Shown here one piece after another: positions 1 through 53,314 of a DNA stretch of 64,000 nucleotides (position 1 is its first letter; the number at the start of each line of letters is the position of its first letter). Made by a program: the position numbers and the translations under genes. Source of the stretch: Hormiphora californensis (Eukaryota > Animalia > Ctenophora); contig CM035355.1 in the NCBI GenBank assembly GCA_020137815.1, forward strand, positions 4,402,001 through 4,466,000, given 5' to 3'. The notes below the pieces were generated by a model. It did not search any database. It was not told the DNA's origin and saw only the letters and a list, made by a program, of their open reading frames with translations.

Positions 1-1508
1 TGTGTACACTCTGAGACATTGCAGCTCCAAGATATGGGCCTATAAATGGACCACAGTTGAAATGGGCATACTGAGCTCCCCTGGAAAAGCATATATGAAG
101 CAACACTGCTGGAAAAGCATCAACAAGATATCTACTATCTAGAACTCTGTTTTCAGTTGAGTATACTCAACAAGACGTTAAAGTCCATTCCGGATATATA
201 TAATCACGCCACTTCCTTTTAAGGAATGTAAGATTGAGGTCCAGGACCAATCAATTATTGATGTGGACCAATTATTACCTCACTTGCATGATCCGGACGA
301 ATGGGACTTCCCTGATAATGTATCCTCAGTTATCATTTTTAATCGTCAGAAGGAACAGATTTGATTCAAAAAATCAAAAAAGGAACAGATAAAACCGGAA
401 GATGCTTCGAATGAGTATAAACGACTAAGAGCAATCCTTCGAGATAATAACTTGTTATAGAAAAATATACCCAGCCGGCTCTGATTATCTGCATGCACGG
501 GAGAAAGTTATGTACTACTATTTGGAGACTAATGAAAACTGTGGCATACATTTATTATTTATTAATTATTTTTAAATGGTGTAATGGAGTCAGATGGTAT
601 TCAAAACTCCGCGGATAGGACTTCAATATCCAAATACCCAAGTTGAGAACTCTCAACAACCATTGGAAAAGCATCGATAGCAGTGGGAATACGTGTAATG
701 TTGCGGAGGAACATCGACGTTAAAAAAGGACTAATAAATGGTATGTAATGTAATTTGTAATCCCATTCGTTAAAGACAAGAAAGGATCCGTTGACAAACT
801 TGAAATTAAATTCGACGGAGTTAGGGAAACAACAAAGAGGTATAAGAGAAGTGAAAGTTTACCGAAATGTTTTCTTCTTCGGACTTCAATTCTCTATAAC
901 TCTTAATTAAATTGAATTAATAAATTATACGTAGTACTATAATCGAGGGTGAGGAATTATTCGCTACAGCAACTTCCGGAATATATGTGCGAAATTCTAC
1001 CACTTCGTCATCATCACGTTCTGGTCTGTGGGAGAGCGAGATGCTGCTATTGGAACATGCCCCCCCTCCCACCCTAGAAGCCTAACACGGGCCACACCGA
1101 AACTAACCCATCTTACAGGAATGGAGTTCGATTGGGAAGAGTTTAGAAAGAGCGCAGAAGAATTACTCTATCATTCCAAAAGGGACCACTGTGGACAGAC
1201 ATATAAACAAGAAGAGGACTGTGGAGGACGAACACTTGGTAGAAATTCTACCACTTCGTCATCACCACATTCTGTGGAAGAGCGACATGCTGCTATTGGA
1301 ACAGGTATCCGGCTAGAATACCAATCGTGTGCCATGAGACAGTATATTCGATCTCCGAGATGGAACCAATGTTATAACAGCTGTTACCAGTCGCCCTGCA
1401 TGCTGGTGCAAACAAATAAAAAGCAACAATGCCCCCACAAATCTAACTAACGAAGTCTGGTCTCTCCGCTTGTTAAAGAACAGGAAAGGAAACGGCGACG
1501 ACTGGAAA

Positions 1509-1681
1509 AGAGCAGAAAAAAGAGTAGATATTATATCTACTCTTTTTTTACTGCTCTATAAATTTACACAAGCTACAAACTGTTGAATAATCAATATCGA
1601 ATGAAACGTTTCTTTACTCATATATTAGTAAAGAAACGTTTCATTCGATATTGAACAGTTTGTAGCTTGTGTAAATTTATA
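1509..1681. repeat. Two abutting hairpins (1509-1557 and 1557-1681)
   Basis: agagcagaaaaaagagtagatat pairs with atatctactctttttttactgctct. tataaatttacacaagctacaaactgt..tcaatatcgaatgaaacgtttctttact pairs with its reverse complement at 1627-1681 (7-nt bulge, 8-nt loop). Confidence 0.9.
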
Positions 1682-2515
1682 ATTGATATCAACATCTATA
1701 ACTTAATTACATCTAATGTAGGTTAATAATCACAAACTCTTATATTTATTATACGAGGAAAGCGTTGAGGTTCGGTGCCCTGTTCACCACCGCATTTTAC
1801 TGGGGGGGGGGGGGGGGTGGCCGTGGGAGGGGGGGGGGGGCGGCCAGGGCGAAATAATCCTGCCACCATAAAATGACTTTGGGTGGAAGGAATACGAGGA
1901 CAGCGTTGCAAAGACCTTAAAGTTTTACTATGTTTACAGATTTCGCACCGGTTGATAGAGTTAAAGTACCCTACAAATTGCAGTTGTAGTAGCTGACCAG
2001 CCCCTCCTAATACTCCTGATGGAATAAAAACTTTAAAACGACGCCATTCGATGGCATTATAACATTATATTTCCAACACTACTCATAATATTTCTGTAGC
2101 TTAACGGGCACTGCAAACATGTTCTACAGTGGCAACAGCCCCCGTAATGGTGCCTCCCCTCCTTCCCCTCCCCTAATCTCCCCTAGATCCGTTGAAAGGA
2201 TCTTGGACTCGCCATTTGCTTCGGTACTAACTAATCTAACTAAAGAAGTATGGTCTCGGCGCTTGTTAAAGAACAGGAAAGGAAACGGCGACGACGTTTC
2301 TTTATTCATATGTCTGGTGATAAGGAAGTAGTTACAGTATCGCTATCTCACGGCTCTATCTATTACATGAGTAAAGAAACGTTTCATTCGATATTGAACA
2401 GTTTGTAGCTTGTGTAAATTTATAATTGATATCAACATTTGTAAATACAAAATAAAATCTATAACTTCATTACATCTAATGTAGGTTAATAATCACAAAT
2501 TTTTATATTTATTAT

Positions 2516-6150: not shown

Positions 6151-7130
6151 GTAGATATGTTGTATCGCACTAAAAAGCGTATATCACGTGCGCGTGGACA
6201 AGTGCTAAGGAGTACGATAGTGTGCAGGAGCTTTTTAAAATGAATAAAGACATCATCATGACAGAAGAGGATGAGAAGATGATGAGAGAGTCGAAGGACT
6301 GCTGGATTTGTGGCAAAGAGTTGAAGAGGGACCGTGTGAAAGACCACTGCCACATGACAGGAAAGTTCCTTGGTGCAGCCCACAACGCCTGCAACTTGAT
6401 GCGAGCAAAGAGGGAGACTGAAAAACTTCCAATCCTCTTTCACAACTTCAAGGTAAACCCTCTGTATCAAGATTTGTGTGCACTGTGGGATAATACCGTG
6501 TTTTAGGTTGAAGGAATGTCTTAAATATATAACTATTGACCGTTTTACACGACGAACACAATTGGTAGAAATTATACCCCTTCGTCTACTGTTATCATTA
6601 TTAGATAGGAGAATTTATCAGTGACATTAGTATACCTTATTTTACTTAAAGTTTTACAGATTTCGTACCGGTTGATAGAGTTAAAGTACCCTACAAATTG
6701 CAGTTGCAGTAGCTGACCAGCCCCTGTGCACCATTGCCAAAATAATACAGTTGGACATGCAACAAAGTTCTATTTATAACAAGAATTATTGCATTATGTA
6801 TTCATAATGCGGTGTTTCCCTGCCCTCCGTCGACAGGATCAGTATCACACTATCAGTATCACAATATCAAGGCTTGGTCACAATGTGAGATGCATGCGTC
6901 CTGTATGTATGCAGTTACACAGCTGTTTTACTCTACCCTCACCCCTTCAGCAACAGTGTTGTGAGCGCCGCGCACAGCTTTGAAAAATAAGCGTCCTGAC
7001 ATCATATTTCATCAAAACAGTTATTTGATTTTATGAAGGAGCAGTTACTATGCTGCTACCGTGACACACGCGATTTTGACCACGCTCGAGTTACTATTTC
7101 AAATCCGAGATTTCTAAACCCTTTATGATC

Positions 7131-7189: not shown

Positions 7190-7360
7190 GCAGGGAAAAA
7201 ATAATTAATAAAATTAATAAATTATACGTAGTTATAATCGAGGATGAAGAATTAGTCGCTACAGTAGGCTACTGTCAGTAGCTTCCAGAATATGTGCGAC
7301 GGACTATTCTAGAAATTATACCCCTTCGTCTACTGTTATCATTGTTAGACAGGAGAATTA

Positions 7361-8638: not shown

Positions 8639-9630
8639 AAATTCAGTGATCTTTAGCTATGCTCATATCTGAAATATTCTGATCTCCTGCCAGGGACCAA
8701 TAGGGCAATGATTGACACACTGCAGTTTCTTGGGCTAACTCTTTGTTGTAAGACGATCTCTGAGACCGCCTTCTGAATCTGTTCTTCGGCAACATGTGAG
8801 AAGAAGTATATTTGTAGCCAGCCTATATGGAGATTGTCTCATAAGAGCGACATTTGGGGAGATATGACTCGAAAGGGGCTAAAGATGGACAATTGGGGAT
8901 GGAGTACCGGTACCGAGAGCTTCTTTAACTGGGGAACAGACTCCAATTTGATTTCAGAAAACTTAAAAGCGCTGTTTAAGTCTTGTTCGTCGACAGTGTG
9001 TATCAGTTGCCGGTGTGAACGCTGCTGGCTCCATTGCGCCTGCAAAGCAGAATGTGCAAAATCAGTTGTTTTATTCTAAAAGAAGCCACAGTTGTATGTG
9101 ACCGGTTTGTGTATTTTAATCTATTCGATGTTTTTACTTTTTAATACATTTTAATTACGCGTTAACTTATCAATTTTATATTATGCAGGGAGTAATTTAA
9201 TCTCTTGAACTTATCAATATCAAAGGAACGTCATTGAACTTGGCGATTGTCAGTTGTTTAATTATCGTATGGTACTGTGTACTATGTTTTATTGTTTCGA
9301 ATCTTAATTTGAGCTCCAGCTCAGCTGAAGGCAAATATGAAAAGTGTGGTTAAATATTTAAAGCATGTATGTAGATATCTCTCGTGCGATATTCGTAGGT
9401 CTAGCGCGCGGTGAAAGTTAGCATCGTCAGCATTTTAAAAGACGCAAACCCATGCAATCGCACATTACCCTTACAAGTGAGATGAAACCTAACGCAGCTC
9501 CCCGAACCCCCGGCAAATTCAGTGATCTCTAGATATGCTCATATCTGAAATATTCTGATCTCCTGCCAGGGACCAATAGGGCAATGATTGACACACTGCA
9601 GTTTCTTGGGCTAAATCTTTGTTGTAAGAC
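8639..9630. repeat. 116-bp direct repeats (8639-8754, 9515-9630) enclosing a 760-bp insert with a minus-strand exon-like segment
   Basis: Near-identical aaattcagtgatct...ttgttgtaagac copies. The insert has a minus-strand ctgctttgcAG acceptor at ~9041 followed by a 67-codon open stretch. Confidence 0.85.
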
Positions 9631-10050: not shown

Positions 10051-10629
10051 TGTCTGGGTGAATGCCAAAGGCAGGGTTAGCAGGGCTGATCGTTACGAGG
10101 TTAAACAGGGGAGCTGCCACCAGGCCATCATGGACAAGCTCCAATAACTATAAGCAGCAAGCGATTATCGATGAAAAAATCGAACGGGACCAGCGTGTCC
10201 ACCGTTATAAGACGACAAGAGGGTATTCTAATTTCTTTCAATGCCACCCCGGCCCCTCTGCCCCCACCATTCAATAACCATGCTGTCCATGGATTCGACA
10301 AAAGATAAGGCCGAAATTGTACCAGGGGTTTTGTACGTGCCAGTCACTTTGCAGGAATAATAAAGCTGCGTCTCCACTGTCATGAGACGACGAGAGGGTA
10401 TTCTAATATCTACCACACCAAAGCTATTCTTGCAGTGAAACTTCAGTTTTGTATGGAAGGCGCGGAGGCCGGGACATTGTAGCGTGATTTATATGCATCC
10501 ATTTTTAATGTATCGCTTTTCCCAGAAAGTTCATATGATTTGGTAACCGGTTACCGTGTCATCAGTAGTATGCCTTGCTTGTATAACATGCTATACGAGG
10601 GGATAATCTTGTGGCATGTATCCGGATTC

Positions 10630-10821
10630 TTGGAGTCTTCCCTTTCTTACCAGCAGGAGACATACATTTCTTGTGGGCAGCACTGGGACCATCGCTACCC
10701 GGATGTACCACAGCTTGCAAACCTTACCACAGTTCAGCAACTCAAGGGGTTCAAGGAAGGTAAAAATGTGAAGAATCACTTCGTCTGGTAGCTGATGAAG
10801 ACTCGGTTCTCCCTCAACCAT
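10630..10821 (-). pseudogene. F-box protein 5' fragment
   Basis: MVEGEPSLHQLPDEVILHIFTFLEPLELLNCGKVCKLW is a canonical F-box (LxxLPDEILxxIFxFL..L..VCKxW). A ttgcAG acceptor lies 17 nt upstream of the ATG (10821). No downstream domain. Flanked by an exact 18-bp direct repeat. Confidence 0.8.
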
Positions 10822-10950
10822 CCTTTCCGTCGTGAAATCTGCAAATCGAGGTTTGTTTCGTTGAGCTTGATTCTCGACACTGGAAGCACGTATGTAGCAG
10901 CTATACGAGGGGATAATACTATGGCATATCGAACATGACTTGGGGATCAT

Positions 10951-11016
10951 ACCGAAGCTGGCAGATGAGCAGTTAGGATTCAGGAAGGGATTATCGACAA
11001 GTCATGCAACCCTTAA
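10951..11016 (+). pseudogene. LINE reverse transcriptase fragment interrupted by a Kolobok MITE
   Basis: PKLADEQLGFRKGLSTSHATL = QxGFRxGxSTxxA motif of non-LTR RT. Confidence 0.7.
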
Positions 11017-12406
11017 GGGTACGCTAACCGAAAATTTTTTTCGAGTGCAGGGAAATCTCTCACCGTAGGGTTGTAGGCCATGCCAAGGAGACCTCAAATA
11101 TGCAATTTGAGCTCTCAAGTCGAATTCATATTTTTGCTACAGCTGCTTGAAAAATGAACTGAAAATAAGTTTTTGGCATCTCAAAAAAATTTCTTTAAAG
11201 ATAGGAGCATGAAAATTTAGGGATTTGAAGAGGACATGAATGTGAATAACCACAAAAAAATTTTTCGCAATCCGAGCTGATTTCCGGTCCTGAGATGGAT
11301 TTCTTTTTTTCCATTTTAACGCCCTATTTGGCAAACTTCCGAAAACATGTGAAAGCTGTAAATTGGTGAAAAGTTGCGTCTAACGATTATCTAAGTGGCC
11401 ATAAATTTTGGGCGTGTCCTTATTTGAGATAAGCTGTACAGAGTTTTTTTTGTGAAAGCCGTCATTTCAGAAATAAATAAATTCTCTGTATCTCAAAAAC
11501 GACTGATCGTAGAGACCTGAGACTATGCTTAAACGATTCAGAAGGTCCGATTTTGGGGGGGTCTTCTGAGAGACATTTTGCTCCTACTTCAACCGTTTAT
11601 GCTGTAATTGCGAAAAACAAATTCTATGAAAAGGGCAAAAGCTAAACTCCAATATTCTGTAATTAGGGAATTTTAGCTAACAAAGGACCGAAACTATGGA
11701 AAAATGTGTTACAAGCTAATTCCTTCACTATTTGGTCCATATGGGTCCCTATAATCACCAAAAAGAAAATCACAAAAAATCCACGATGGCGAAGATGGGT
11801 TTTTGTTTTTCGCAATTACAGCAAAAACGGTTGAAGTAGGAGCAAAATGTCTCTCAGAAGACCCCCCCAAAATCGGACCTTTTGAATCGTTTAAGCATAG
11901 TCTCAGGTCTCTACGATCAGTCGTTTTTGAGATACAGAGAATTTATTTATTTCTGAAATGACGGCTTTCACAAAAAAAACTCTGTACAGCTTATCTCAAA
12001 TAAGGACACGCCCAAAATTTATGGCCACTTAGATAATCGTTAGACGCAACTTTTCACCAATTTACAGCTTTCACATGTTTTCGGAAGTTTGCCAAATAGG
12101 GCGTTAAAATGGAAAAAAAGAAATCCATCTCAGGACCGGAAATCAGCTTGGATTGCGAAAAAAATTTTTGTGGTTATTCACCTTCATGTCCTCTTCAAAT
12201 CCCTATATTTTCATGCTCCTATCTTTAAAAAAAAAATTTTGAGATGCCAAAAACTTATTTTCAGTTCATTTTTCAAGCAGCTGTAGCAAAAATATGAATT
12301 CGACTTGAGAGCTCAAATTGCATATTTGAGGTCTCCTTGGCATGGCCTACAACCCTACGGTGAGAGATTTCCCTGCACTCGAAAAAATTTTTTGGTTAGC
12401 GTACCC
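11017..12406. mobile_element. Kolobok-type non-autonomous foldback element, family A copy 1
   Basis: TTAA TSD (11013-16 / 12407-10). Ends GGGTACGCTAACC...GGTTAGCGTACCC (RR..YY termini). ~605-bp TIRs around a ~180-bp spacer. Confidence 0.9.
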
Positions 12407-13607
12407 TTAAAACAGTACCCAAGTCAATGATAACTATCCGGTACTAAAAGTAGTATAATAATTACATTATGTTTTATATAAGTTATTATAAATAGTTCTA
12501 ATTGGAGATGGGACAATGGTCCCAGCAGCTCATTCAAGCACTTTCACAACAATCACCAAAACAATTGTGGGCGAAAAGAAAAACTGTCCCTGAGGCATAA
12601 TTGTTGTATTATTGTATGTCCCTTACCATAATGTAAGTACAGCTACAACATGTACTAACTGAATCATGGCCAAATTATGCTAATAACATTTTCGCACTAT
12701 GAAAAATCAGTGGAGGCCACCAGGCCATTATGGACGTCCTACATGCCTTGGTCAGAAACCAGCAAAAACTACAGGAGAAGATAGAGCGACTGGAAACGAG
12801 TGTTTCAACGATGATGCGCCGCCAAGAGGAACTTCTGGCGTGCTACACACTCCATCGGCAACGGTATAGCTCGTGGGTGTCAACAACGTTTTCTTTCGGT
12901 GCCACTTTTAGTTATATATGGATTATCTAGGGCCTGTCTTAAGCGTAAACGTGACACCGAGGAAGAAACATGGATACTGTTCAACGCGGATCTGACCGTA
13001 CTCCAACGTCCTGACTTAGATAGATAGAACACAGTTTAAAGTTTTACAATTTACATCGTTATCAGAATCTTTGTTTTATCAGGGTTTAATCACATCGATT
13101 AATATTAAACTAATTACTCGTTATGTCCCATCTAACTATGCCTAAATACACCTGCAATAATTGGCAGTGCGGACGGTGTAAACATGACTGGACGAAGTGT
13201 AGAGATAAGTATTGATATGAAATAAATCAGGAGAGTCCGTGCAATTGTAGGGGGAGACGTGACGCCGTGAATTTTGCCCATTACAGAGGAGTCTCGCACA
13301 TAGCTGAGAGCCCAACTGAAAATAATATGTAGTTTCATAATGGTTCAATGTTCATTAAACATAACTAATAAAAAGTTCTAATTAAAAATGTGGCAACGGT
13401 CGCTGCAGCAGCTCAGCGCGTCATAGTGTATAAGGGAAAAGAGAGGGCCAAACATTTACACTTCTTTCTCACAACAGGTGGAGGAAAATACCGATTCGAT
13501 AAAGCAGATACTTGCTCTGACAAAAAAGAATACGACGGTACTAAACAGGATTGAAACGCAGCAACACGAGATGGAAGGGGTTATTGAGGAACAAAAAAAG
13601 GAAATCG

Positions 13608-14985: not shown

Positions 14986-15991
14986 CTGATTTTAATTTAT
15001 ATATTTTACTCTAATTTATCTTCCCCTAAACATTCCATTGAATATACAATATCATGGGCGGACGACTTAGTTTCCCTGGTACAGTCAAGAGATTATGATG
15101 ACTGTCCAGTACTAAAAGTAACTTATAATAATTAAATTTATTTCATATAAGTTATAAACAGTTCTAAAAGAAGATGGGACAATGGTCGCTACACCAGCAC
15201 ACCACCGTTTATGATGTACGGACAACCCTGGGTGCGTGTGCGCTAGAACTTGAGAGATTTGATATTGATTATTGAGAGTTGAAAATCTGCAGATGAAAAT
15301 CTTGTGATGATTTCAAATTGAGTATTCTGTTAAACAAATACACATCGTTTCACGTTTTGACTATCGTTATCAATGTATCATATAGAATCTCTCATTTCCC
15401 TATAGTGACCAAGTCCACGATAAAACAATAACTTATGTAATCCTGTACCGTTTCTCCTATAACAGTGCAGGGACGGCCCACAGTATGGACCCTTCTAGTT
15501 TGTGTGTGACACGGTTTGAAAATAAATCCGGCCGCATGTTTCCATGGGCGTGCAGACTGGAAGCCACCCTAGAATACTCGGCAGTGCCTTCCTTTGCGCC
15601 AACTTATAATGTAAATTAAAAGAAAAAGCACACCAAGTAAAAGCCGGGCTTAGACCTACAGTTTACCAGGTGGACACACGTCATACAATAAACCATAAAA
15701 CCTAGCTATTACTAGTATTAGGGCCACACACAAACTGCATTTTATAGCCACGGAGATCCGTTTAGTTTCACTATTGATATCTCCACACCGGAGACTAGAA
15801 ACTAACACCCCTCTCCCTGTCATAGCAAGATCCTAACATGATATTTGATGCTCGGGAAGATGTCACTATGGAGTGGACTTGGGGCCTAGAGGAGGAGGAG
15901 GAGGAACTACTGCAACTCCAAGAATCAGCCTCCACGTCCACCCCCTGGTCCCTCAGCCCGCATGTATATATGTAATTGTATGTTGTATGTA

Positions 15992-16271
15992 CAGGGTGGT
16001 TCAGAAACATGGAGCCACTTGGAGATAAAAGTTGGAAAAATACAATCCTCTCTCTATTGTAAGGATCCAAATTTCAACGTGTTACCCTGTCAGTTGACAG
16101 GCTGATAATTTTTAAGAAAGAGTGACTCTCTGTCGATCTCAATCCTCAGGGGACGCTTTTTCTAGTCAAGACACCGTGAAAATACGTTTTTAATTACACT
16201 GTACATTGGAGAGCGAACTGTATTGACACATTATTTATCTCAAAGTGGCTCCATGTTTCTGAACCACCCTG
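15992..16271. mobile_element. Tc1/mariner-type MITE (280 bp), copy 1
   Basis: TA TSD. ~37-bp TIR cagggtggttcagaaacatggagccactt(g/t)gagataa. Second copy at 57783-58062. Confidence 0.93.
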
Positions 16272-16968
16272 TATACAAGTCGTATTTATTTATTTGTAAG
16301 ATGTTTTAGACATTGTAAGGAGGGGAGGTGGTTACCTTTTTATTTATAGAGATGTTTATTTTTAATAATATATTATTTTACACCTACTTAAACTTTTCCT
16401 ACTTTACCTCATATATAGTTGTTTCATTATCCATACCGCTAACCCCCTCATTGTCTCTACCTCCATTAATTCCTAGCATAGCTTGGTGATTTTATGAAGC
16501 CAAACAAGAAAGGGGCCCCCAAAACCCCCCGACTACCATGACCCTCCACCAGCGGTGAGGGGTCAGGATGGGTTGTACAGACAATGCCATCACGGAGACG
16601 GATGTACTTCAACCAGATGCACAGAGAACTACCTCAACGATAGGGGGCAAGGTATACATTGGGAACCCCTGACAGTAGGCCCCGGTGACCACATGAATCC
16701 GGGACTATTTTCGTCAGATCCCAAAATCCAGTTCTTCCTCCAAAACCATCATCCAAGCAGAACAATCTTGGTAGAGAATTATACTGCATGAAGAGGGTTA
16801 CTAAAAAGTTATTAAGACGTTATTAGTATTATTTCTTTTGGCTCAAATAGAGTCATTGGAATTGTAAGTTTAATATATTTGAATATAGTAATTACACACG
16901 CATTCATTGTATTTTTCTCAGGTGAGCAACCATCCAATCATTCTGGACATGATGACAGAAAGAGAGGA

Positions 16969-18931: not shown

Positions 18932-20125
18932 CACACACACCGAGCTGGTGATGTTTAATTAAAAATAACATTTATAAGATTAACTTAATTTAGAGAATTA
19001 TATAAGAGCACAGCTGTGGCTGAAGCAAGAGCTGGCACGGAAAGCGCAAATAATACTTTCTACAACGCAAGGTAACGACGCATTTCTGTCGACAAAATGT
19101 AAGGAGGATCAGGAAAAAATGGATTTGTAGATTTCGACATGTTTGAGAACGACAGTACCAGTATACAGTACCAGTAAAGTACAGACTACCACAAGGCTAC
19201 GAACCAGGACACCTATTTCAAGCAACTAAAGGATGTCCTAGGAGAGAAGCTACAGTCACATATCGAGCTGGTGATATGTAACTTGAAACAAGATCTTATA
19301 AAAAGGAAACAATACCAAAATTAATGTATGCACATGTATGATGCTGCCAAGGACCAGCCAATGGCCATGATTAAAACACTCACGGTCATGCCACTACTGT
19401 ATCCTGCAACCACCGAGAGGAGGGGCTACTAAGTAGGAAGGCACTATAACATTATGCGCTCTTGTGATGGCCAGATCTACATCCCTCCACTACCCAAGAC
19501 TATGTGGCGATGTGGAAAATGAAGTCGAAATATGACAAAGAACAGCAAGTCACGGAAATGTAACTCATCATGATGCTTCATATACAGGCGATGTGTGTGA
19601 TGCAGATAGCGCACTCCAACTCATTTACACAGACTATGTATCAATGATGACATATACCTGTTTAAATGACTTTTTATTAATTAATAATTAATTATATAAT
19701 TTACTGTGATATAAACAGTACAACGTTATATACTGATACGAATCTATGCCGGCAGGATACGTGATACAAAAGTACGATACCTACACATGTTCAATGCGTG
19801 TAAGTGACCCCCACAAGCATACTTAGTCCCGGAAGAAGTTGAATACTGGCATGGCTTGAACCGGCACAGCAGCTAACCAAACCACCAGTGGCGCTTGAGC
19901 GTAAAGGTCACTGTCTGCTCTTCGTACTAGGAGATGTCGACCCAGATATCATCACCCCGGTGCCGGGATTCCGGATTAAATTAAATTAAAGTTACTTATC
20001 AGGGGTGAGGACTGCAACGGGAAAATTGTACTTAGAGTACAAATGAACACTGTAAAACAAGAATTATTATTATTATTATCAGGTACACGTGGTCAGGAGT
20101 AGTATATAAAATGGCCCCGCTGCCC

Positions 20126-20412
20126 CACGAATTTGGTGTCACCACATTATTCCATATTTGGTCATGATATCACGTGACCTCAGATGTATCACGTGATATC
20201 AGCTGCTGTCACATGATGTCATATGAAGTCACGTGATTATGAGGTCATGTTGTGATGTCATTTCATGACGTCACACCATTTCGTCATCATGTATAATTAT
20301 GTATTATATGATTATGATTAATTAAAATCATAATTTGAATGAAAGTGACGTCATCTGATTTCCTGTGATATAATACCCAAATATGGAATAATATGGTGGC
20401 ACCATATTCGTG
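20126..20412. repeat. ~48-bp imperfect inverted repeat enclosing a cluster of cacgtg/tgacgtca palindromes
   Basis: cacgaatttggtgtcaccacattattccatatttgg..gatatcac (20126-20173) versus the reverse complement of 20365-20412. No TSD. Confidence 0.75.
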
Positions 20413-23252: not shown

Positions 23253-23294
23253 GGGGGATAACTCTATCCGTTTCCATTTCTAAATATTTTCCTA

Positions 23295-29344: not shown

Positions 29345-29386
29345 TGCCACAGGTGCGGCAAACTGGGGCACCAACCGGGTAGCTGC
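29345..29386 (+). pseudogene. Gag-type CCHC zinc knuckle fragment
   Basis: CHRCGKLGHQPGSC = CX2CX4HX4C. Confidence 0.6.
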
Positions 29387-36400: not shown

Positions 36401-39400
36401 ACACCATTAGACAGGTGAGGTGAGGTGGGAGGACCACCATTATGACAGGTGCAGGTGGGTAGGACCACCATTAGACACCATTAGGTGTGAGGTGGGAGAC
36501 ACCTTGACAGGGTGAGGTGGAGGTGGGCCATTAGACACCATTAGACAGTGAGTGGAGTGGCCATTGACAGGTGAGGGGGGAACACCATTAGACAGTGAGG
36601 TGGGGAGACACCATTAACAGGTGAGGTGAGGTGGGTAGGACACCATTATGAAGGGAGGTGGGCAGGACACCATTAACAGGTGAGGTGGAGGTGGGCAGGA
36701 CACCATTAGCAGTGTGAGGTGGGGACGACCAAAGACAGGTGAGGGAGTGGAGGACACCATTAGACAGGTGAGGTGAGGTGGAGGACAACCATTAGACAGG
36801 TGAGGTGGGGTAGGACACCATTAGACAGGTGGGTGAGTGGGCAGGACACCAAACAGGGTGAGGACCATTGGTGAGGTGAGATGGGGGACACCATGGTGAG
36901 GGTGGTGTGGACACTTAGACAGGTGAGGACATGGACAGGTGAGGGGGAGGCGACACCATTGACAGGTGAGGTGGGCAGGACCATTAGACAGGTGAGGTGG
37001 GTGGACACCATTAAAGGTGAGGGATAGGTGGGTAGGACACCATGAGAGTGAGGTGAGGGGTAGGACCTTAACGGTGATTGAGGTGGGTGAGCATAGAGGT
37101 GGACTTAGACGGTGACAGGTGAGGTGAGGTAGGACACCATTAGACAGGTGAGGTGGGGGTAGGACACCATTAGACAGGTGAGGGGGCAGGACACCATTAG
37201 ACAGGTGAGAGGTGGGAGACACCATTAGACAGGGGTGGGGTGGCAGGACACCATTAGACAGGTGAGGAGGCAGACACATTAGACAGGTGGGGAGGGCAGG
37301 ACCATTAGACAGGTGAGCAGTGGGGCAGGACACCATTAGAGGAGTGGGGCAGACCATTAGACAGGTGAGGTGGGTAGGGACACCATTAGACAGGTGGGTG
37401 AGGTGGGCAGGACACCATTAGACAGGTGAGGGGGGTCAGGACCCATTAGACAGTGAGGTGGTGGGCAGACACCATTAGACAGGTGAGGTGGCAGGACACC
37501 ATTAGACAAGTGAGGTGGGTAGGACACCATTAGACAGGGAGTGAGGTGGGCAGGACACCATTAGACAGGTGAGTGTTGGGCAGGACACAATTAGACAGGT
37601 GAGGTGAGGTGGGCAGGACACCATTAGACAGGTGAGTGAGGTGGGTAGGACACCATTAGACAGTGAGGTGAGGTGCGCAGGACACCATTAGACAGGTGAG
37701 GTGAGGTGGAGGACACCATTAGACAGTGTGAGGTGGTAGGACACCATTAGACGGTGAGGTGAGATGGGCAGGACACCATTAGACAGGTGAGGTGGTAGGA
37801 CACCCATTAGACAGGTGAGGTGAGGTGGGCAGGACACCATTAGACAGGTGAGGTGAGGTGGGCAGGACACCATTAGACAGGGAGGTGAGGTGGGCAGGAC
37901 ACCATTAGACAGGTGAGGTGAGGTGGGCAGGACACCATTAGACAGGTGAGGTGAGGTGGGCAGGACACCATTAGACAGGTGAGGTGAGGTGGGCAGGACA
38001 CCATTAGACAGGTGAGGTGAGGTGGGCAGGACACCATTAGACAGGTGAGGTGAGGTGGGCAGGACACCATTAGACAGGTGAGGTGGGTAGGACACCATTA
38101 GACAGGTGAGGTGAGGTGGGCAGGACACCATTAGACAGGTGAGGTGGGCAGGACACCATTAGACAGGTGAGGTGAGGTGGGCAGGACACCATTAGACAGG
38201 TGAGGTGAGGTGGGCAGGACACCATTAGACAGGTGAGGTGAGATGGGCAGGACACCATTAGACAGGTGAGGTGAGATGGGCAGGACACCATTAGACAGGT
38301 GAGGTGATGGTCAGGACACCATTAGACAGGTGAGGTGAGATGGGCAGGACACCATTAGACAGGTGAGGTGATGGTGGGTAGGACACCATTAGACAGTGAG
38401 GTGAGGTGGGGCAGGACACCATTAGACAGGTGAGGTGGGCAGGACACCATTAGACAGGTGAGGTGTGAGTGGGCAGGACACCATTAGACAGGTGAGGTGA
38501 GGGTGGGCAGGACACCATTAGACAGGTGAGGTGAGGTGGGCAGGACACCATTAGACAGGTGAGGTGAGGTGGGCAGGACACCATTAGACAGGTGAGGTGA
38601 GAATGGGCAGGACAGGACACATTATCCAGTGAGGTGAGGTGAGGGCCGGACACCATTAGACAAGGTTAGGTGAGTGGGCAGGGACCACCATTAGGACAGG
38701 TGAGGTGGGCAGGACACCATTAGACAGGTGAGGTGAGTGGGCAGGACACCATTAGACAGGTGAGGTGAGGATGGGAGGACACCATTAGACAGGTGATGGT
38801 GATGTGGGCAGGACACCATTAGACAGGTGAGGTGAGGGGGGTAGGGAACACCATAGAACAGGTTGAGGGGAGGGTGGGTAGGACACATTAGACAGGTGAG
38901 GTGAGCGCTGAGGTAGCGACACCATTTAGACAGTGAGGTGGGTCGGCACAATTAGACAGGTGAGTGGGTAGGACACCATTTAGACAGGTGAGGTGAGGTG
39001 GGCTAGGCACCCCATTGACAGGTTGAGGTTAGGTGCGGTAGGAACACCAATTAGATAGGTGATTGTGCAGGACACCATAGACAGGGGGTGAGGTGGGTAG
39101 GACACATAGACAGCCAGGTGAGATCGGGCAGGACACATAGACAGGTGAAGGTGAGTGGCAGCACCATAGAGGGGGGAGGAAAGGAGAAGGTGGTGAGGGA
39201 GGACCATGGAAGTGAGAGGTGGAGGACACGAAGAGAGAGAGTGAGGGGGAGGAGCACCTGACGGGGGGGCAAAGACGATATGGACGGGTGAAGGGAAGGA
39301 CACAAACGGTAGAGTGGTAGAGCCATAGAAGGCGAGGTGATCGGTGGGTGGACACCTTGCACAGTGAGGGGCAGGACCCACTGAGTGAGAGTGAGGGGCA

Positions 39401-42976: not shown

Positions 42977-45344
42977 TACTCACAAAAACGGAAACAGCAA
43001 GCAATAGGAAGAGGCAAGAGAAAAAGGACAAAGAAGAACATTCTTTCTCAAGTTCTTACTGATTTAATTTAATTGTGGACTAGAGACTAAAGATTAAAAT
43101 ATTTACAGGAGATCCATATTCTCTCGAACAATATGGACGATATATGAAGGTCGATTCAGAGACAAGATGTGTGGTTACCTCGCCCCTTACTTGCACAGCT
43201 ATGGATAACACCTTAGTTTCATTCGCCAAGAAATATCATCCCGCCCCGACCACGTTGAATGGCTGTCGTTTACATGCCCAATACATACAGTGTCGAATTT
43301 ATGAATACTCCATACTGGACACTAACCCAATTGCCATATTTACATAGAATATAGAGGTATAGAGGTACACGGAATATATAGAGGTACCTGGTACATGGAA
43401 TAAAGAGGTACATCGCCCTTTAAATATCATTTTGATCAGACGGTCCTCTCCGTTATAAGAGACTCAATCTAGGTAGAAGGCGCCGGACAATTTCAGTGGG
43501 ATAGGAAGGAAAAGATGACGAAACAAGCGCAAAAGTTTTACCGGGAAAATGTTGGTCCTCATTTTTACATCGCTTAGCTCTAGCACAGTACAATATAACA
43601 CTCGCATTTTGTATCGATATTTCATCTTTTTATCGTTATCTTTTTTGGTATCATTCATTATTTTCACGTATATTCTTTTTGTTGTCAATACGTTTATATC
43701 TTACTTTCCAGTTAATACCACAGGCAAGGGGAGAACTCGAGTACCTGCGACACAGGTGCAGGATTGGAAGAAAACTGTTAACATTCTTTTATTTACTCCA
43801 GGAAACGTGTGATTTTGTGTCTGAAGGTGCCCTGTCTCTTGCGAGAGCACCCTCCAGTACACTAAGGGAGGTACTCTAGTTTTCTCCAAGAATATTGGGG
43901 ATGAAATTGCACCAATTGAGCACCATGGAGACAATCAGCACACCGGACACGAAAACCTACTTCTTGAAATGGGCTGACTTCAAACTAATCCAAGCTGAAA
44001 AACAAATAATGTACGGAACGGGGGAGAACTATAAACAGTCGACCAATATATCAGGACACAGAGATGGCACAGGACTGATGATGGTTCACGGAACCGAATT
44101 AGAAATTAATGTCGACCTTATTAAAATTAACAGCGGAAAGAAGAGCAACGATGGGGGAGGCAAGAAAAGGCAAAGGAAAAAGGCATCGGGCAGACCACAC
44201 CCTACAACAGACGTGTGACACCCTGGATTATAAATGATAAAATAACTTTGTTGTTTGTATTTAAGGGAAGACAAAGGATAATCATAAAATAATCTATCCC
44301 GTATCCGATTCCCAAGATTGTTGATATAATGGGATCTTCGCCCAGGGTATTAATTCGAATTGGGAGAAAGGAAGAGTGGTTGGATTCATCCCCAAGTGAT
44401 ATGGTTTCTGCAACGATGAAACGTGCGATTTTGTGCCTGAAAGTCCCTGATATTGGTGAAGGAACCGACCTGTCACAGGTGTAATTCTACATGGAAAAAC
44501 CCAGCGCCAAATAAGAGTTAAAGGAAAGGACGCGAAAATACCGGTAAGTGGTGGAGGAGAAAGGTATCGGGCAGACCACCGCCAGCTATGTTGTGTCAGC
44601 GACTATGCTGGCAAATGATTATGGAGGAGGATGGACCCTGGGTGTAGGTGGTTCTGGACACCCCCTTAGGTATGCAGGAGGTCCGCATGGGAGGATTTGG
44701 AGAGAGGTTGGTAGTGCCTCACCAGAAGCACCCCGGCCCGCTGACCTTCTGCTTGGTGAACTCTGTAATAGCCCTGGTTGTGCCCCTGGAATTATGCTGG
44801 CAAATGATAACGGAGGGAGCTGGACCTTGGGAGTAGGGGGATAAAATAACAAACCTATAACATAATTGATAAATTAAATAAAGAGCTGATATAAGATAAT
44901 AACAATGCTAAAACGCCGGGACTACTACTTTTAAACAAAGTAGACGGAATGTCCAATTAGGGTTTACAGGCAGGTTAGCATTCCGAATTGAGGAATGGTC
45001 AATAGGACTAGGGGAGCTGGAGATGTAGATTCGGGGGTGGTAGATCTCTGGCTGTCACAAAACTCCTTATTCTTCAGGACAGGGGAAATAGAAGTAGGCC
45101 TCCGCACTAACTTTCTTTTACGAATATGTCTCCTAACCCATGATCTATCCAATTCCCAAGCTTACATACACTCCCTCCTTGAGAGGGAGCGGTAAAATAA
45201 CAATGCTATAAAATATAATATAATCACTGATAAAAACTGGTACACCAGGACTACCCCATTTAATTAAAAGTAGACTGAATGTCTCATGGAGCCCTGCAGT
45301 GTAATTGGAGAAGGTAAGTGACACCTAAACCATCAACCGACAAG

Positions 45345-45620
45345 ACAAATCGATTCTGCACTCTCCCCACAACGGCCTGAGAGGAGAGACTACAGCAACA
45401 TTTGGCAAACGGATGGACTGAACTAAGCGAGGACCCCTCCAACTCATTCCAGCTACAAGCCAACACTCTCCTAAAGACTTGCCTAAAGGAAGCAGATATA
45501 GGGGACGAATACCTAGTCACACGTCTGTCAACCAGATATTTCACCGCCCCAATCGTGTACCCACTCGCAAAGGACCACAAACCTGACTTCCCAAACACAA
45601 AGATGCGTGTGGTTCAGCCA
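45345..45620 (+). pseudogene. Penelope-like RT N-terminal fragment (second, deleted copy at 48945-49175)
   Basis: WTELSEDPSNSFQLQANTLL..APIVYPLAKDHKPDFPNTKMRVV matches YxxLxxDPxxxF...PxxYxLPKxHK..PxRxxV. Confidence 0.75.
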
Positions 45621-46212
45621 CAAAGCTATAAAATATAATATTATAATTGTAATAAAAACTGATACACCGGAACTACCCCAATTAAATGTAGACTGAATGT
45701 CTCATGGAGCCCTGCAGTGTAATTGGATGCCTACTACTACATAGGCCTATACAGATGCTACCGACAATCCCCACCGACACTTTCTAGGGAGGAAGCAGTT
45801 ATATCAGCCGTTTCTTTTTCCACCAGCCTTGGAATTTGTTGTAGCTGCAACAATTCGTGCAAAAGCAGTTGCGGCTGCAGAAAAAGTAAGATGACGTGCC
45901 AAAGAATGTTGCAATAACAAAGCCGCCGCCCAAAAGAGACTCCTAGAACTGTAATCAAGGGCTCAATAAGACTAGCGAAAGGGTTTATGGATAAGCATCG
46001 GGTTTCTTGAGTCAAACTAGATATAGACACAGCAGCAACACTGAAAAAACAGAGGAAGTTGTCTAAGGGACACGTATTCTAAATACCACTTAAATTACTC
46101 TGTTTGCTTTATTTGATCGTTTGATCAGCGGTAAAATAACAAAACCCTCCCCTATAACATAATTGATATATTAATTAAAAGGATGATTCATTCCAGAGAC
46201 CAATAACGAATA

Positions 46213-46385
46213 AGAACCGCTCACACTACCGTGGCCCTCATCAAGACTCTAGACAAGCTGAGAGAAAATTCCTGGTTTTCATCACCTGGTGTCCGGGACA
46301 CCACGGGATAGCAGGAAACGTGCGGACCAGTTGGCAAAAGCTGCTGCAGATGCTCCCCCTCCCACAGAACATTTCATCCCTGTAG
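46213..46385 (+). pseudogene. Non-LTR retrotransposon RNase H C-terminal fragment
   Basis: VFITWCPGHHGIAGN/ADQLAKAAA = WxPGHxGIxGNExADxLAK, with a frameshift. Confidence 0.8.
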
Positions 46386-47479
46386 GCAAGATATAAAGTT
46401 GCAGCCAAAACGTGGTCCTTAACACAGCTACCTCCAAGTCTTACTCAGTTGAAGGAAAAGTTGACATCACATCGACCAATCATCTGATTAGCTATGTTAC
46501 TCTCTCATCCAAGGCAGATCTCCAATCGCCAACTTTCTGATAAGAGCTGATATTATGATAAAAGAAGATATATAAATGTAATGCTAAAACACCGGGACAT
46601 TCCGGAGACCAATAACGAATAATAGCATCGGGTTTCTTGAGTCAAAACTAGATTTTTGTGAAGAAACACCGTATAGTGAGGTCCAAAAAGTTAAAAACTC
46701 AAAGTTTTGAGTCAGTGACTAATCGGCCCTAGTATAGTGATTCGGCTATTCTGCCATTTAGGGACTTTAATACCACGGGCAAGAAGTTATGTGCAGACTG
46801 TGTGATACACGTATTCTAAATATTATGGGATGGTAGTACCCGAACAACAGCAGCTTATCTATTGCAAGGCGTGCGGCTACTTCGGGCATATCACCGCGAT
46901 TTGTGGCAGATATATGGACTGAACAAGCGGGGCGCAACAGCACTAGACGGCGGGCAAAGGCGGCCAGGCGGGGGAACAGCGTTCAGAACTGCTCCATCCG
47001 TTGCAATACCCCTACGACAAGACGGTACCCCACCGTGACCACTACAAGGATGTCCCCTCAGGATGCCCGCAGGAAAGAGTCCCCACGGCCCACCCAAGTG
47101 AGAATAATTGATAAATCAAATAATGAGCTGATATAAGATAATAACAATGCTAAAACGCCGGGACTACTACTTTTAAACAAAGTAGACGGAATGTCCAATT
47201 GGGGGGGGGGGGCTGTGTCCAGTCAGCAGTAATAGAAACCTATATGAAGAAATAGAACCCCGGGCAAAGATCCAGAAACCACACGGGAAACCCGCCAGGA
47301 CAGACATCACGGGATTCCATGGATGTGAGTATGAAGAAGGAGAATGCATATACATATGATATATCCAATTCTCAAGCTTACATACACTCCCTCCTTGAGA
47401 GGGAGCGGTAAAAAAACAATGCTATAAAATATAATATAATCACTGATAAAAACTGGTACACCAGGACTACCCCATTTAA

Positions 47480-48851
47480 GGGTACGCTAACGCAGGGAAA
47501 TCTCTCACCGTAGGGTTGTAGGCCATGCCAAGGAGACCTCAAATATGCAATTTGAGCTCTCAAGTCGAATTCATATTTTTGCTACAGCTGTTTAAAAAAT
47601 GTCATGTAAATTCGTTTTTGGCATCTCAAAAAAATTTTTTTAAAGATAGGAGCATGAAAATTAGGGGATTTGAAGAGGACATGAAGGTGAATAACCACAA
47701 AAATTTTTTTTGCAATCCGAGCTGATTTCCGGTCCTGAGATGGATTTCTTTTTTTCCACTTTAACGCCCTATTTGGCAAAGTTCCGAAAACATGTGAAAG
47801 CTGTAAATTGGTGAAAAGTTGCGTCTAACGATTATCTAAGTGGCCATAAATTTTGGGCGTGTCCTTATTTGAGACAAGCTATACAGAGTTTTTTTTGTGA
47901 AAGCCGTCATTTCAGAAATAAATAAATTCCCTGTATCTCAAAAACGGCTGATCGTAGAGACCTGAGACTATGCTTAAGCGATTCAGAAGGTCCGATTTTG
48001 GGGGGGTCTTCTGAGAGACATTTTGCTCCTACTTCAACCGTTTTTGCTGTAATTGCGAAAAACAAATTCTATGAAAAGGGCAAAAGCTAAACTCCAATAT
48101 CCTGTAATTAGGGAATTTTGGCTAAGAAAGGACCGAAACTATGGAAAAATGTGTAACAAGCTAATTCCTTCACTATTTGGTCCATATGGGTCCCTATAAT
48201 CACCAAAAACAAAATCACAAAAAATCCACGATGGCGAAGATGGGTTTTTGTTTTTCGCAATTACAGCAAAAACGGTTGAAGTAGGAGCAAAATGTCTCTC
48301 AGAAGACCCCCCCAAAATCGGACCTTCTGAATCGTTTAAGCATAGTCTCAGGTCTCTACGATCAGCCGTTTTTGAGATACAGGGAATTTATTTATTTCTG
48401 AAATGACGGCTTTCACAAAAAAAACTCTGTACAGCTTGTCTCAAATAAGGACACGCCCAAAACTTATGTCCACTTAGATAATCGTTAGACGCAACTTTTC
48501 ACCAATTTACAGCTTTCACATGTTTTCGGAACTTTGCCAAATAGGGCGTTAAAGTGGAAAAAAAGAAATCCATCTCAGGACCGGAAATCAGCTCGGATTG
48601 CAAAAAAAATTTTTGTGGTTATTCACCTTCATGTCCTCTTCAAATCCCCTAATTTTCATGCTCCTATCTTTAAAAAAATTTTTTTGAGATGCCAAAAACG
48701 AATTTACATGACATTTTTTAAACAGCTGTAGCAAAAATATGAATTCGACTTGAGAGCTCAAATTGCATATTTGAGGTCTCCTTGGCATGGCCTACAACCC
48801 TACGGTGAGAGATTTCCCTGCACTCGAAAAAAAATTTTGGTTAGCGTACCC
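47480..48851. mobile_element. Kolobok-type foldback element, family A copy 2
   Basis: TTAA TSD (47476-79 / 48852-55). Near-identical to 11017-12406 apart from a ~17-bp deletion in the left TIR. Confidence 0.92.
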
Positions 48852-49369
48852 TTAAAAGTAGACTGAATGTCTCATGGAGCCCTGCAGTGTAATTGGAGAA
48901 GGTGACTGGTAACTGACACCTGAACCATCATCCTGACAAGACAAATCGATTCTGCACCCTCCCCACAACGGCCTAAGAGGAGAGACTACAGCAACATTTG
49001 GCAAACGGATGGACTGAACTAAGCGAGGACCCCTCCAACTCATTCCAGCTACAAGCCAACACTCTCCTAAAGACTTGCCTAAAGGAAGCAGATATTTCAC
49101 CGCCCCAATCGTCTACCCACTCGCGAAGGACCACAAACCTGACTTCCCGAACACAAAGGTGCGTGTGGTTCAGCCACAAAGCTATAAAATATAATATTAT
49201 AATTGTAATAAAAACTGATACACCGGAACTACCCCATTTAAATGTAGACTGAATGTCTCATGGAGCCCTGCAGTGTAATTGGATGCCTACTACTTCATAG
49301 GCCTATATTGATGCTACCGACAATCAAAGAACCCCACCGCAGGAAACTTCTTGTATTGTTCATACAAGG

Positions 49370-49530
49370 GACACTTCCTAGGGAGGAAGCAGTTGTAGCT
49401 GCAAGTGCCGTTTCTTTTTCCACCAGCCTTGGAAATTGTTGTAGCTGCAACAATTCGTGCAAAATCAGTTGCGGCTGCAGAAAAAGCAAGAGCAACCATC
49501 TATGCAGTGGCCCTGGCACCTGTGACCTCC
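49370..49530 (+). pseudogene. Cys-rich (CXC-like) C-terminal remnant of a transposon protein (second copy 45780-45900)
   Basis: LPREEAVVAAS..CCSCNNSCKISCGCRKSK..C..C. Confidence 0.4.
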
Positions 49531-50401
49531 GGCCAAAGAATGTTGCAATAGTATAGTGATTCGGCTATTCTGCCATTTAGGGACTTTACTACCACGGGCA
49601 AGAAGAGATGTGCAGACTGTGTGATACACGTATTCTAAATATTATGGGATGATTGTACCGGAACAACAACAGTACAGCTTATCTATTGCAAGGCGTGCGG
49701 CTACTTCGGCCATAGCAGGCAATGCAATCGAGAAAGAAGCGATAAAATCCTACATTATACAATTATACATCTTTAGCTTTCTTTTGTTTAGCAACAGCAA
49801 ACTCTTGTAATACCCCTAAAAGAGCCCCACCGCAGGAAACTTCCTAGGGAGGAAGCGATAAAATAACAAATCTATAACATAATTGATAAATTAAATAAAA
49901 GGCTGATAGAAGATAACAACATTGCTAATACACCGGGACTACTACTTTTAAACAAAGTAGACTGTGAATGTCTCATGGAACCCTGCAGTGTAGAAGGCAA
50001 CTGACACCTGAACCCAGCTCATAGGACATAGGAAACGGACTTCATCATAGTAAATGAGGTACTACTAGAACAGATAGTCATAACACTAATAAACAATTTG
50101 TAATTTAAGATTCAGAGAAGCAGTGGTCGTATTCACAGAAGAATGGAGTTAGTTCTGAAACCGCTGATAACAGTAGATGTACAAAAAGTAACACGTGAAG
50201 CTTGGCTTAAAGTCATTTTTCGTAAAAAACACCTGGTTTTATGTAAAGGCGAGGAAATCGCTCCTGGGCCGTAAAATAAGTGATAAAATAACAAATAACA
50301 TTTAATTGATAAAGGCTGATCAATATAGGAACGATGAAGACATAAAAAAGGCTGATACATAAAAGATTATAACAACACTGCTTACTGGTGTGTTTGAAGA
50401 A

Positions 50402-51305
50402 TAGTTAGGGGTAATAACACCGAATATCGCCTTGACTGGGAAAAAATTTGTGTCAAGCTAATTTCTTCACTAACGTGTCCCAATAGGTCCCCTCTAGCCC
50501 TCCTGAGTTTTTCATAACTCGGGATGGGGTGCAACATGTTCATTTCCGGGTGGGCGTGGTACCTGTATTTTCAGCCTGAGGCCAAAACCATAAGTACCCT
50601 TAAAATAGGAGTAGACATAAAATCGAGGGCACTAAAGTGATCAGCGTCCTCGCATTAGTGGGGGTAGGTGCCGGAATTAATTCTCTATCTCATCTGGTTA
50701 ATTAGATAATTGGATAATTAGGTTTGCACATAACCGTTTTTTGGCTATATGGCTATAGCCACTTAGGAATGGTTTAGAGACTTTTCACTGGCGCCATTTT
50801 GTAGGCAATAGCCAAGTTATGGGGGTCGAAGTCGGACTTTTAAGCTCTATCTCCAACCGTTGGAGATAGAGCTTAAAAGTCCGACATCGACCCCCCATAA
50901 CTTGGCTATTGCCTACAAAATGGCGCCAGTGAAAAGTCTCTAAACCATTCCTAAGTGGCTATAGCCATATAGCCAAAAAACGGTTATGCACAAACCTAAT
51001 TATCCAATTATCTAATTAACCAGATGAGATAGAGAATTAATTCCGGCACCTACCCCCACTAATGCGAGGACGCTGATCACTTTAGTGCCCTCGATTTTAT
51101 GTCTACTCCTATTTTAAGGGTACTTATGGTTTTGGCCTCAGGCTGAAAATACAGGTACCACGCCCACCCGGAAATGAACATGTTGCACCCCATCCCGAGT
51201 TTGGAAAAACTCAGGAGAGCTAGAGGGGACCTATTGGGACACGTTAGTGAAGAAATTAGCTTGACACAAATTTTTTCCCAGTCACACGACTACCGCCCCT
51301 AACTA
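50402..51305. mobile_element. Academ-type foldback MITE copy 1 (904 bp)
   Basis: Termini TAGTTAGGGG...CCCCTAACTA. 3-bp TSD GAA (50399-401 / 51306-08); the empty site ..ggaGAAggcaactgac occurs in scaffold copies at 53888 and 58378. Near-perfect internal palindrome 50432-51284. Confidence 0.85.
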
Positions 51306-52039
51306 GAAGGCAACTGACATCTGAACCCAGATGTCAAGGAGACTAACTGAACAGCCTATCAGAAACAGTGTTATAAAAACTGTCCGATCTGCATCTCGAG
51401 TGTCACATGACTTTGAGAATGACCAATGGGAGTGAGAGTGATATTTACAGGCCTGGTGTTGAATTAACGATTGCTTTGTATAAAATTGAACTTTTATCCT
51501 TCCGTGGCCAGTTCCATCCACGACTCCTGAACAACTTGTCTGAACCAGTTGGATCACTGTGTGGTTGCACTTAGGTCTCTTTTGGATCACTGAGTGTTTG
51601 TGCCTGGGTCTCTTTTGGATCACTGAGTGTTTTAACAAGACCCCCGTGCAGATGTCAAGGAGACTAGATGCCGACACCGAGTTCAGGGACTAATTGAACA
51701 TTGGCTGCCTGCTTTGTTCGGAGGACGACACCCCTGAGCCGGCGGTTACATTCAACTGGAGCAGTCTCAGAAACCATCCGCTCCAATACCCGTTTGACCG
51801 GACAGTTCCTCACCTAGATTTGTATAAAGACGTGCCATCGGGTTGCCCGCAGGAGAGGGCCCCGACCCAAAGAAGAACACTGGAGGATGGAATTCGGTCT
51901 CGATTACAGCACCTCCTCTCAGTACGCGCTCAAAGAGGCAGAGGAAGAGAAGCATGTGCAAAGGATGACCATGATCTATCCAATTCTCAAGCTTACATAC
52001 ACTCTCCCTTGAGAGGGAGCGGTAAAATAACAATGCTAT

Positions 52040-53314
<1,275 letters not shown>

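Follow-up and report, generated by a model that had tools for sequence, protein, structure and literature searches.

Doublets, a form of local duplication, were reportedly the subject of earlier work by Thomas et al., as cited in Pace et al. 2009. Repair-mediated duplications of this kind have been described in other genomes (PMC2671141, PMC7407515, PMC5730883) and, in Pace et al. 2009, doublets are duplicates shorter than about 620 bp that lie within 5 kb of each other, lack poly-A, carry microhomology or filler at their junctions and are in some cases chimeric, with one near and one distant donor, 824 cases being reported for the human genome (PMC2671141). Patch-mediated or paired-nick duplications (Vaughn and Bennetzen 2014; Schiml 2016), as summarised in PMC7407515 and PMC5730883, result from staggered nicks and end joining, take tandem, partly tandem or non-tandem form, and contain inserts from nearby or ectopic donors. 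Templated sequence insertions are divided, in PMC5110952, into class 1, with a target duplication, poly-A and a TTTT/A site, and class 2, in which distant DNA is patched into a break with no target duplication. Among the papers listed by a narrow literature search for local duplication and break repair at piRNA clusters, none was listed as describing anatomy such as that found here.

The window analysed is a stretch of 64,000 nucleotides from the ctenophore Hormiphora californensis (contig CM035355.1). The initial annotation had listed eight inserts bracketed by direct repeats, each attributed to one acquisition that copied its flank, and the repair mechanism it proposed is that of patch-mediated or paired-nick duplication. 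The pairs are as follows.

991-1057 and 1242-1303, forward strand: pair 1, around 184 bp, with 4 substitutions and 5 gap columns.
8639-8754 and 9515-9630, forward strand: pair 2, 116-bp repeats around 760 bp, 97% alike with 3 substitutions.
10193-10236 and 10368-10411, forward strand: pair 3, 44-bp repeats around 131 bp, with 6 substitutions.
10590-10617 and 10900-10927, forward strand: pair 4, repeats of 28 bp that share an exact core of 18 bp, around 282 bp.
21684-21824 and 23696-23836, forward strand: pair 5, with 6 substitutions; BLAST extends the repeat to 149 bp.
27961-28067 and 28786-28905, forward strand: pair 6, the left copy likely representing part of an LTR.
46189-46213 and 46598-46622, forward strand: pair 7, 25-bp repeats around 384 bp.
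51328-51345 and 51649-51666, forward strand: pair 8, exact 18-bp repeats around 303 bp.

All eight pairs were recovered where they had been placed, with repeats of 18-149 bp that are 83-100% alike, although that of pair 3 is longer than the approximately 27 bp first given. They exceed chance: the window holds 197 exact direct matches of at least 18 bp within 5 kb, some simple repeats counted, and 20 fourth-order Markov shuffles yielded none of that length and 0.1 per shuffle at 16 bp. Repeat offsets range from 175 to 2012 bp and inserts from 131 to 1871 bp. The reported lack of TIRs and poly-A tails holds for all eight inserts (0-1 terminal bases match; the longest 3' A-run is 4), and the insert ends have no motif in common. 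The description of the inserts as unique or foreign does not suit pairs 1 and 7, which have local sequence at their ends, or pair 6, which contains a high-copy piece.

The listed pairs resemble doublets in their short repeats, in lying within about 5 kb of the donor and in lacking poly-A and TIRs. For most of them the junctions would be definable only against an empty site; features that may be of the doublet type are seen at some places in the window: overlaps of 0-12 bp at 12 of 14 indels between in-window paralogs (the other two mark longer repeats), a 3-nt overlap at pair 8 and a stutter within 63239-63425. Unlike human doublets, the repeats here are, by inspection, far denser (13 of 45 kb, with which the human figure of 824 cases is not like-for-like), almost all direct, and heaped into multi-copy scaffolds. 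The patches also differ from those of patch-mediated duplications, being gene or transposon scraps of 0.2-1.9 kb, and a one-step origin of that type is suggested here for one case only. Patching of distant DNA into a break recalls class 2 templated insertions; the absence of poly-A from all eight inserts departs from class 1. Bracketing by direct repeats is also a feature of transposon target-site duplications, among them that of the rotifer element R9, which is said to be about 126 bp long, but there is here no fixed repeat length, no element ends and no common insert.

Although real, the listed pairs are a small subset of the local repeats rather than a special class. After masking of MITEs and satellites we counted 36 local repeat families, 33 of them purely direct, with 140 direct and 4 inverted matches (an excess inflated because palindromic MITEs were masked first) and a maximum separation of 16 kb; local repeats occupy 13.1 of the 44.7 kb left unmasked. 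The true MITEs end in ordinary TA or TTAA, and one stretch of the satellite, at about 35900-37400, looks noisy. The repeats form a gradient: at one end stand perfect tandems, at the other eroded kilobase-scale duplications marked by collinear chains of matches, and in between come repeats separated by a short patch. When the 126 direct pairs closer than 10 kb are compared with one another, 796 relations are crossing and 616 nested; these relations are not independent. Pure target duplications would only nest, and the crossing relations count toward duplication by repair. Blocks that are 97% alike enclose different cargo, 198 bp in one case and 172 bp in the other. A short-read contig in run X5 keeps the local order of the window but skips parts of it and has 116 letters replaced. 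Two regions of local repeats are as follows.

24388-25706, forward strand: young tandem triplication with a unit of about 510 bp, 95% alike, the un-eroded end of the continuum.
44604-58697, forward strand: largest family of neighbourhood repeats, with 79 matches that are all direct.

Individual pairs differ in their surroundings. Pair 1 belongs to a local family of three matches; sequence matching the start of its repeat and both left flanks is present again at 6551-6590 and 7202-7335, and the end of its insert is the sequence repeated at 6551. Pairs 2-6 are two-copy families within the window, pair 2 having sharp repeat ends, and pairs 2-5 retain no further remnant of a larger duplication. 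In pair 4, all three differences between the repeats are synonymous in one reading frame, which may resemble a LINE reverse transcriptase by a motif that sequence and structure searches did not confirm. A fragment at pair 2 is presumed hAT-like and another in the window Academ-like; these three motif-based labels are tentative, homology searches having returned no credible match. A further fragment lies inside the pair-4 insert.

10683-10800, reverse strand: F-box fragment (Pfam PF12937, E 1.9e-11).

Pairs 5, 7 and 8 look, though not decisively, like local copies. Pair 8 begins its first copy on a 3-nt overlap with a scaffold of which all three other copies continue differently, and the last 55 bp or so of the pair-7 insert, which also holds an RNase H-like scrap (E 0.018), are the second half of a local multi-copy scaffold whose first half sits left of the first repeat. 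A longer flank duplication, afterwards trimmed by deletion, would be an alternative for all three. The likeness of 9-10 nt at pair 5 could possibly reflect circular permutation; as a general signature this was rejected, only one pair in eight having it. The C2H2 match in the open frame at pair 5 (E 8e-5) is below the curated Pfam cut-off.

21684-21842, forward strand: left copy of pair 5 with the bases that follow it, the next 9-10 nt being those just before the right copy.
23262-23836, forward strand: 175-aa open frame that extends across the start of the right copy of pair 5, with a weak C2H2 match.
28785-28956, forward strand: candidate LTR beginning with the pair-6 right copy, from TG at 28785 to CA at 28942.
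45917-46729, forward strand: 813-bp block holding all of pair 7, missing from the paralog at about 49550 with an overlap of 2 bp only.

The repeat of pair 6 is likely a retrotransposon LTR, to judge from its Ty3/Gypsy-like features: the TG...CA segment is followed at 28946 by a primer-binding-site-like 11-mer (1 match against 0.03 expected), which we take to be a tRNA-Met site, and downstream, near 29345-29390, by a CCHC knuckle (weak zf-CCHC, E 0.045). The element is decayed and incomplete, no pol was found at it, and one pair in eight has this likeness.

Empty, single-repeat forms bear on whether pairs arise in one step. The short reads gave none for pairs 3-6 among 15 joints listed of 58, and within the window none of the eight pairs has an empty paralog. 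Among 70 pairs there are six in-window candidates, of which two were dated. The candidate 57609/57708 was rejected as a partly tandem duplication, 47416/49176 and 49326/49819 as multi-copy or loose matches, and 53989/55568 as too eroded to date. The dated cases lie outside the original list.

63191-63473, forward strand: 48-bp repeats at 63191 and 63426, 1 substitution, around 187 bp.
62390-62514, forward strand: empty paralog of that pair, from in-window paralog comparison.
53505-53848, forward strand: 94-bp repeats at 53505 and 53755, 5 substitutions, around 156 bp.
58065-58648, forward strand: empty paralog of that pair, its single copy identical to the first repeat (0/94 differences).

At 63191/63426 the repeats differ at 1 of 48 positions, the flanks differ from the empty paralog at 9 of 79 (Fisher p=0.09), and one base is common to both repeats and absent from the paralog. 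The empty paralog thus looks older than the duplication at that p value, and the pair, whose patch (63239-63425) is unique in the window and ends in a 10-bp stutter, suggests itself as the strongest example of an insertion made in a single step together with duplication of the flank. The repeats at 53505/53755 look older than their empty paralog, and this dating fits the outcome that the initial annotation had named as its own refutation, remnants of older copies eroded by deletion.

Searches for sources gave little. Protein word, HMMER and metagenome searches found a donor locus for none of the patches searched. Word searches with pairs 5, 2 and 4 had no match, the sole full-HMMER match for pair 2 was a translated tandem repeat judged spurious, and no credible match came from solved-structure searches with pairs 4 and 2. 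Atlas look-ups were likewise without a usable match; metagenome scans gave no match, or two 18-mer matches judged chance; and a viral-contig match was rejected as a short chance peptide. Protein, structure and metagenome searches found no homolog of pairs 2, 4 or 5 by which native continuity of flank, repeat and flank might be judged. A strand-bias tally of fragments was dropped, Pfam matches being too few.

Together, these observations make it probable that the pairs are by-products of error-prone repair of DNA breaks, which makes local direct duplications that later erode. Repair would copy nearby sequence in the same orientation, often with filler DNA at the join; later deletion and further patching would rework the duplications, and repeated rounds would build up the neighbourhood-specific scaffolds. 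We infer that several routes yield an identical repeat-patch-repeat appearance. A single event may fill in a staggered break and seal it across a captured patch, 63191/63426 being the strongest example and pairs 2 and 3 candidates; deletion with filler may remove the junction of a larger tandem duplication, as proposed for 53505/53755 and probably pair 1; the patch may itself begin with a copy of neighbouring DNA, possibly in pairs 5, 7 and 8; or the repeat may be a retroelement's own or a paralogous piece, likely in pair 6 and possibly in pair 4. These assignments are inferential, no ancestral empty allele having been seen for any listed pair.

That most pairs are instead single acquisitions, with distant DNA patched into widely staggered breaks and the flank copied, is favoured by the contrast between flanks and repeats at 63191/63426 with its shared base, the two-copy families of pairs 2-6 and the sharp ends of pair 2. 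We nevertheless think such uniformity rather unlikely, given the weak dating, the missing empty forms, the frequent crossing, a pair 6 that begins at a likely LTR boundary and a pair-7 insert that ends in local scaffold. The templated-insertion part of the initial proposal fits, with 63191/63426 as its example; one flank-copying event per listed pair is put in question by the LTR-derived look of pair 6 and by the hints of local copying in pairs 5, 7 and 8. The converse, that all pairs are remnants of larger tandem duplications and that scrap insertion is never coupled to duplication, draws on the collinear chains, intact tandems and 53505/53755 dating; it appears improbable, as the 63191/63426 patch coincides exactly with the junction of a duplication, one which seems younger than its empty paralog, and pairs 2-5 keep no other trace of larger duplication.

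Long-target-duplication elements do exist (rotifer R9, cited in PMC5035012), and the flank-patch-flank pattern is superficially like that of spacer arrays. That a dedicated integrase or transposon captured the pieces is very hard to credit, however: repeat and insert lengths vary widely, common ends, TIRs and poly-A are lacking, the window's own MITEs have ordinary termini, and Pfam scans (150 of 226 frames of at least 58 aa in the main scan, and some others besides) contain no integrase family. This part of the initial proposal finds no support. An artefact of long-read assembly is the most remote explanation; the satellite noise and the presence of 78-84% of sampled words in the best short-read runs might suggest one, but repeat copies differ by up to 17% and exact short-read contigs refute it at pair 3, spanned whole by a 511-bp contig with zero differences (runs X1, X2), and at the left junctions of both pair-5 copies (runs X1, X2, X6).

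A bolder reading, to which we give little credence, is that such loci are capture zones, in which scraps of 0.1-2 kb from many different mobile elements are routinely used to patch staggered breaks while 20-150 bp of flank is copied, so that the locus grows into a self-templating parasite archive that feeds small-RNA defence. Its footprints would be the pair 63191/63426, taken together with the corresponding empty paralog, and the exchange of cargo between conserved blocks at 44862/47104. On the repair account that we prefer, the window shows a known mutational process at unusual density and is of use for understanding how patchwork non-coding DNA arises from break repair in a marine animal. 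Were such loci to capture mobile-element scraps by coupled one-step events and also to give rise to small RNAs, their importance would be much higher, because they would offer a testable route by which silencing loci gain sequence.

All eight of the direct repeat pairs proposed in the initial annotation are present, with lengths of 18–149 bp and 0–7 substitutions, in excess of chance expectation, and the inserts lack terminal inverted repeats and poly-A in every case, as had been described. Pair 3 (10193/10368) is reproduced entire by short-read contigs with zero differences, as are the left junctions of both copies of pair 5 (21684/23696), and these are therefore not assembly errors. The listed pairs are a subset of a larger set of local repeats. 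After satellite, microsatellites and MITEs were masked, self-BLAST of the remaining 44.7 kb returned 140 direct and 4 inverted matches, a direct share inflated by the prior masking of palindromes, with a maximum separation of at most 16 kb in the masked window. The matches form 36 families (33 direct only, two inverted only, one mixed) covering 13.1 kb and include seven of the eight pairs; pair 8 (51328/51649) falls under the BLAST cut-off. At the un-eroded end of the range of forms stand perfect tandems (60 bp at 60328) and a young 510-bp triplication (24388–25706), at the other eroded collinear chains. Relations among 126 direct pairs, which are not independent, comprise 796 crossing and 616 nested cases; with so many pairs crossing, more than target duplications alone is needed. 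In the two copies at 44862–45263 and 47104–47479, a pair of blocks 97% alike encloses unrelated cargo (198 and 172 bp) between anchors, a swap of cassette-like form.

These repeats lie in eukaryotic-looking DNA with approximately 40% GC outside the satellite, a mosaic of palindromic MITEs and coding scraps that are short and decayed. Sampled window words are present in six runs of one organism (42–84% per run), with small shares in a second organism and in marine metagenomes. The principal features are:

683–745: Pif1 2B helicase scrap, Pfam match slightly under cut-off, possibly Helitron-derived
6174–6506: endonuclease VII domain scrap, Pfam E 2e-6
11013–12412 and 47480–48851: high-copy 1.4-kb MITE, ~600-bp inverted arms, TTAA ends
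15983–16273, 50402–51303, 54466–55467 and 57778–58064: two more palindromic MITE families, TA ends
30447–39179: satellite, 8.7 kb, strongly GC-skewed, units of 28 and 33 bp in alternation, partly noisy-looking

Among the scraps, F-box and endonuclease VII, a domain typical of Maverick/Polinton polymerase genes, match Pfam above cut-off, Pif1 2B and C2H2 slightly under, and RNase H and a CCHC knuckle weakly; others we presume, from motifs, to be candidate hAT, LINE reverse transcriptase and Academ pieces. Recognisable scraps apparently lie mostly on the + strand, with few Pfam matches to count, and AT skew is positive over most of the window. A shorter relative of the 1.4-kb MITE (26503–26816) is missing from a contig of run X5. 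Open frames at 55969–56436 and 58660–59214, 65% alike in DNA over 284 bp and without Pfam match, may be a genuine small gene family.

The initial annotation had explained the pairs by foreign DNA patched into widely staggered breaks, each event copying its flank. Pair 2 (8639/9515) is the cleanest candidate for this model, homology searches giving no match to establish its native flanks. Pair 1 (991/1242) belongs to a scaffold family of local multi-copy sequence, since further copies of both left flanks and of the start of the repeat lie downstream. All three differences in pair 4 (10590/10900) are synonymous in a single frame, hinting at paralogous pieces and not a single duplicated target. 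The right copy of pair 5 lies within a 175-aa open frame, and the 9–10 bases preceding it also directly follow the left copy (null 0.0004 per test, ~0.006 over 16 tests, post hoc). Pair 6 (27961/28786) is likely an LTR, because its right copy starts one base inside a segment bounded by TG and CA, with an 11-mer resembling a primer-binding site after it. At pair 7 (46189/46598) the first repeat and the RNase H scrap interrupt a local scaffold, so the 25-bp repeats are not true boundaries; a longer duplication, trimmed afterwards, would fit too. The first copy of pair 8 overlaps by 3 nt at its start with a scaffold that continues differently in three copies.

Empty sites, in which left flank, single repeat and right flank are joined without the insert, were sought in reads for pairs 3–6 (four runs, at most two samples); 15 joints out of 58 and 12 filler rows out of 25 were listed, none of which has this form. 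A 1940-bp X5 contig keeps window order from 24430 to ~28763 with five skips. In it 116 letters replace 27437–28519, so that the first pair-6 repeat is absent, while the far part of the insert is retained. Three joints in run X1, presumably on one haplotype, connect 27475, 28826–28946, 30019–30047 and 27879, suggestive of an alternative version built by rearranging local pieces. The region 20000–25400 seems polymorphic in presence: run X6 carries the window haplotype exactly, at low depth, and some bins are uncovered in X5, a run registered under the same sample.

In-window paralogs supplied the empty form for none of the eight pairs. Among 70 direct pairs (gap at least 25 bp, offset at most 3 kb) six have candidate single-repeat paralogs, two of them datable, and these point in opposite directions. 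At 63191/63426, 48-bp repeats with one substitution surround a 187-bp patch; both repeats share one base that the empty paralog (62390–62514) does not have, and its flanks differ at 9 of 79 positions, which weakly favours joint arrival of patch and duplication (p = 0.09). At 53505/53755 the empty paralog is identical to the first repeat (0/94), with one derived base in common, and the second repeat differs at five sites; here the empty form appears younger than the repeats, which is what erosion of older copies would predict. One-step capture probably contributes; as a general rule it is a candidate. A dedicated integrase, also offered in the initial annotation, is disfavoured because repeat lengths span an eight-fold range and insert ends share nothing; the true MITEs of the window, moreover, end in ordinary TA or TTAA.

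The repeats are local, almost all direct and graded in form, with short overlaps and filler at indels between in-window paralogs (0–12 bp at 12 of 14; only 2 bp at the 813-bp block holding pair 7). We infer error-prone break repair, in which staggered ends would be filled in, strands would anneal to templates nearby or far away and tandem duplications would arise, followed by deletion. Comparable classes have been described. In human DNA, Pace et al. counted 824 duplications lying within 5 kb and linked them to ‘doublets’; they show microhomology or filler, and occasionally combine a near with a distant donor (PMC2671141). Rice insertions of 10–1000 bp have been reviewed as duplications with inserts, whether tandem, partly tandem or non-tandem, with staggered nicks plus end joining given as the cause (PMC7407515). 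In mouse cells, paired nicks produce tandem duplications (PMC5730883). The window pairs work like these, and share the size, proximity and want of element ends of repair duplications, whereas the templated insertions with target duplication described in PMC5110952 have poly-A, absent from all eight inserts. That the region is a capture zone, its breaks routinely patched with mobile-element scraps as a self-templating parasite archive feeding small-RNA defence, is improbable. The window repeats are real, the earlier reading was partly right, and they are probably a dense instance of a known duplication class.
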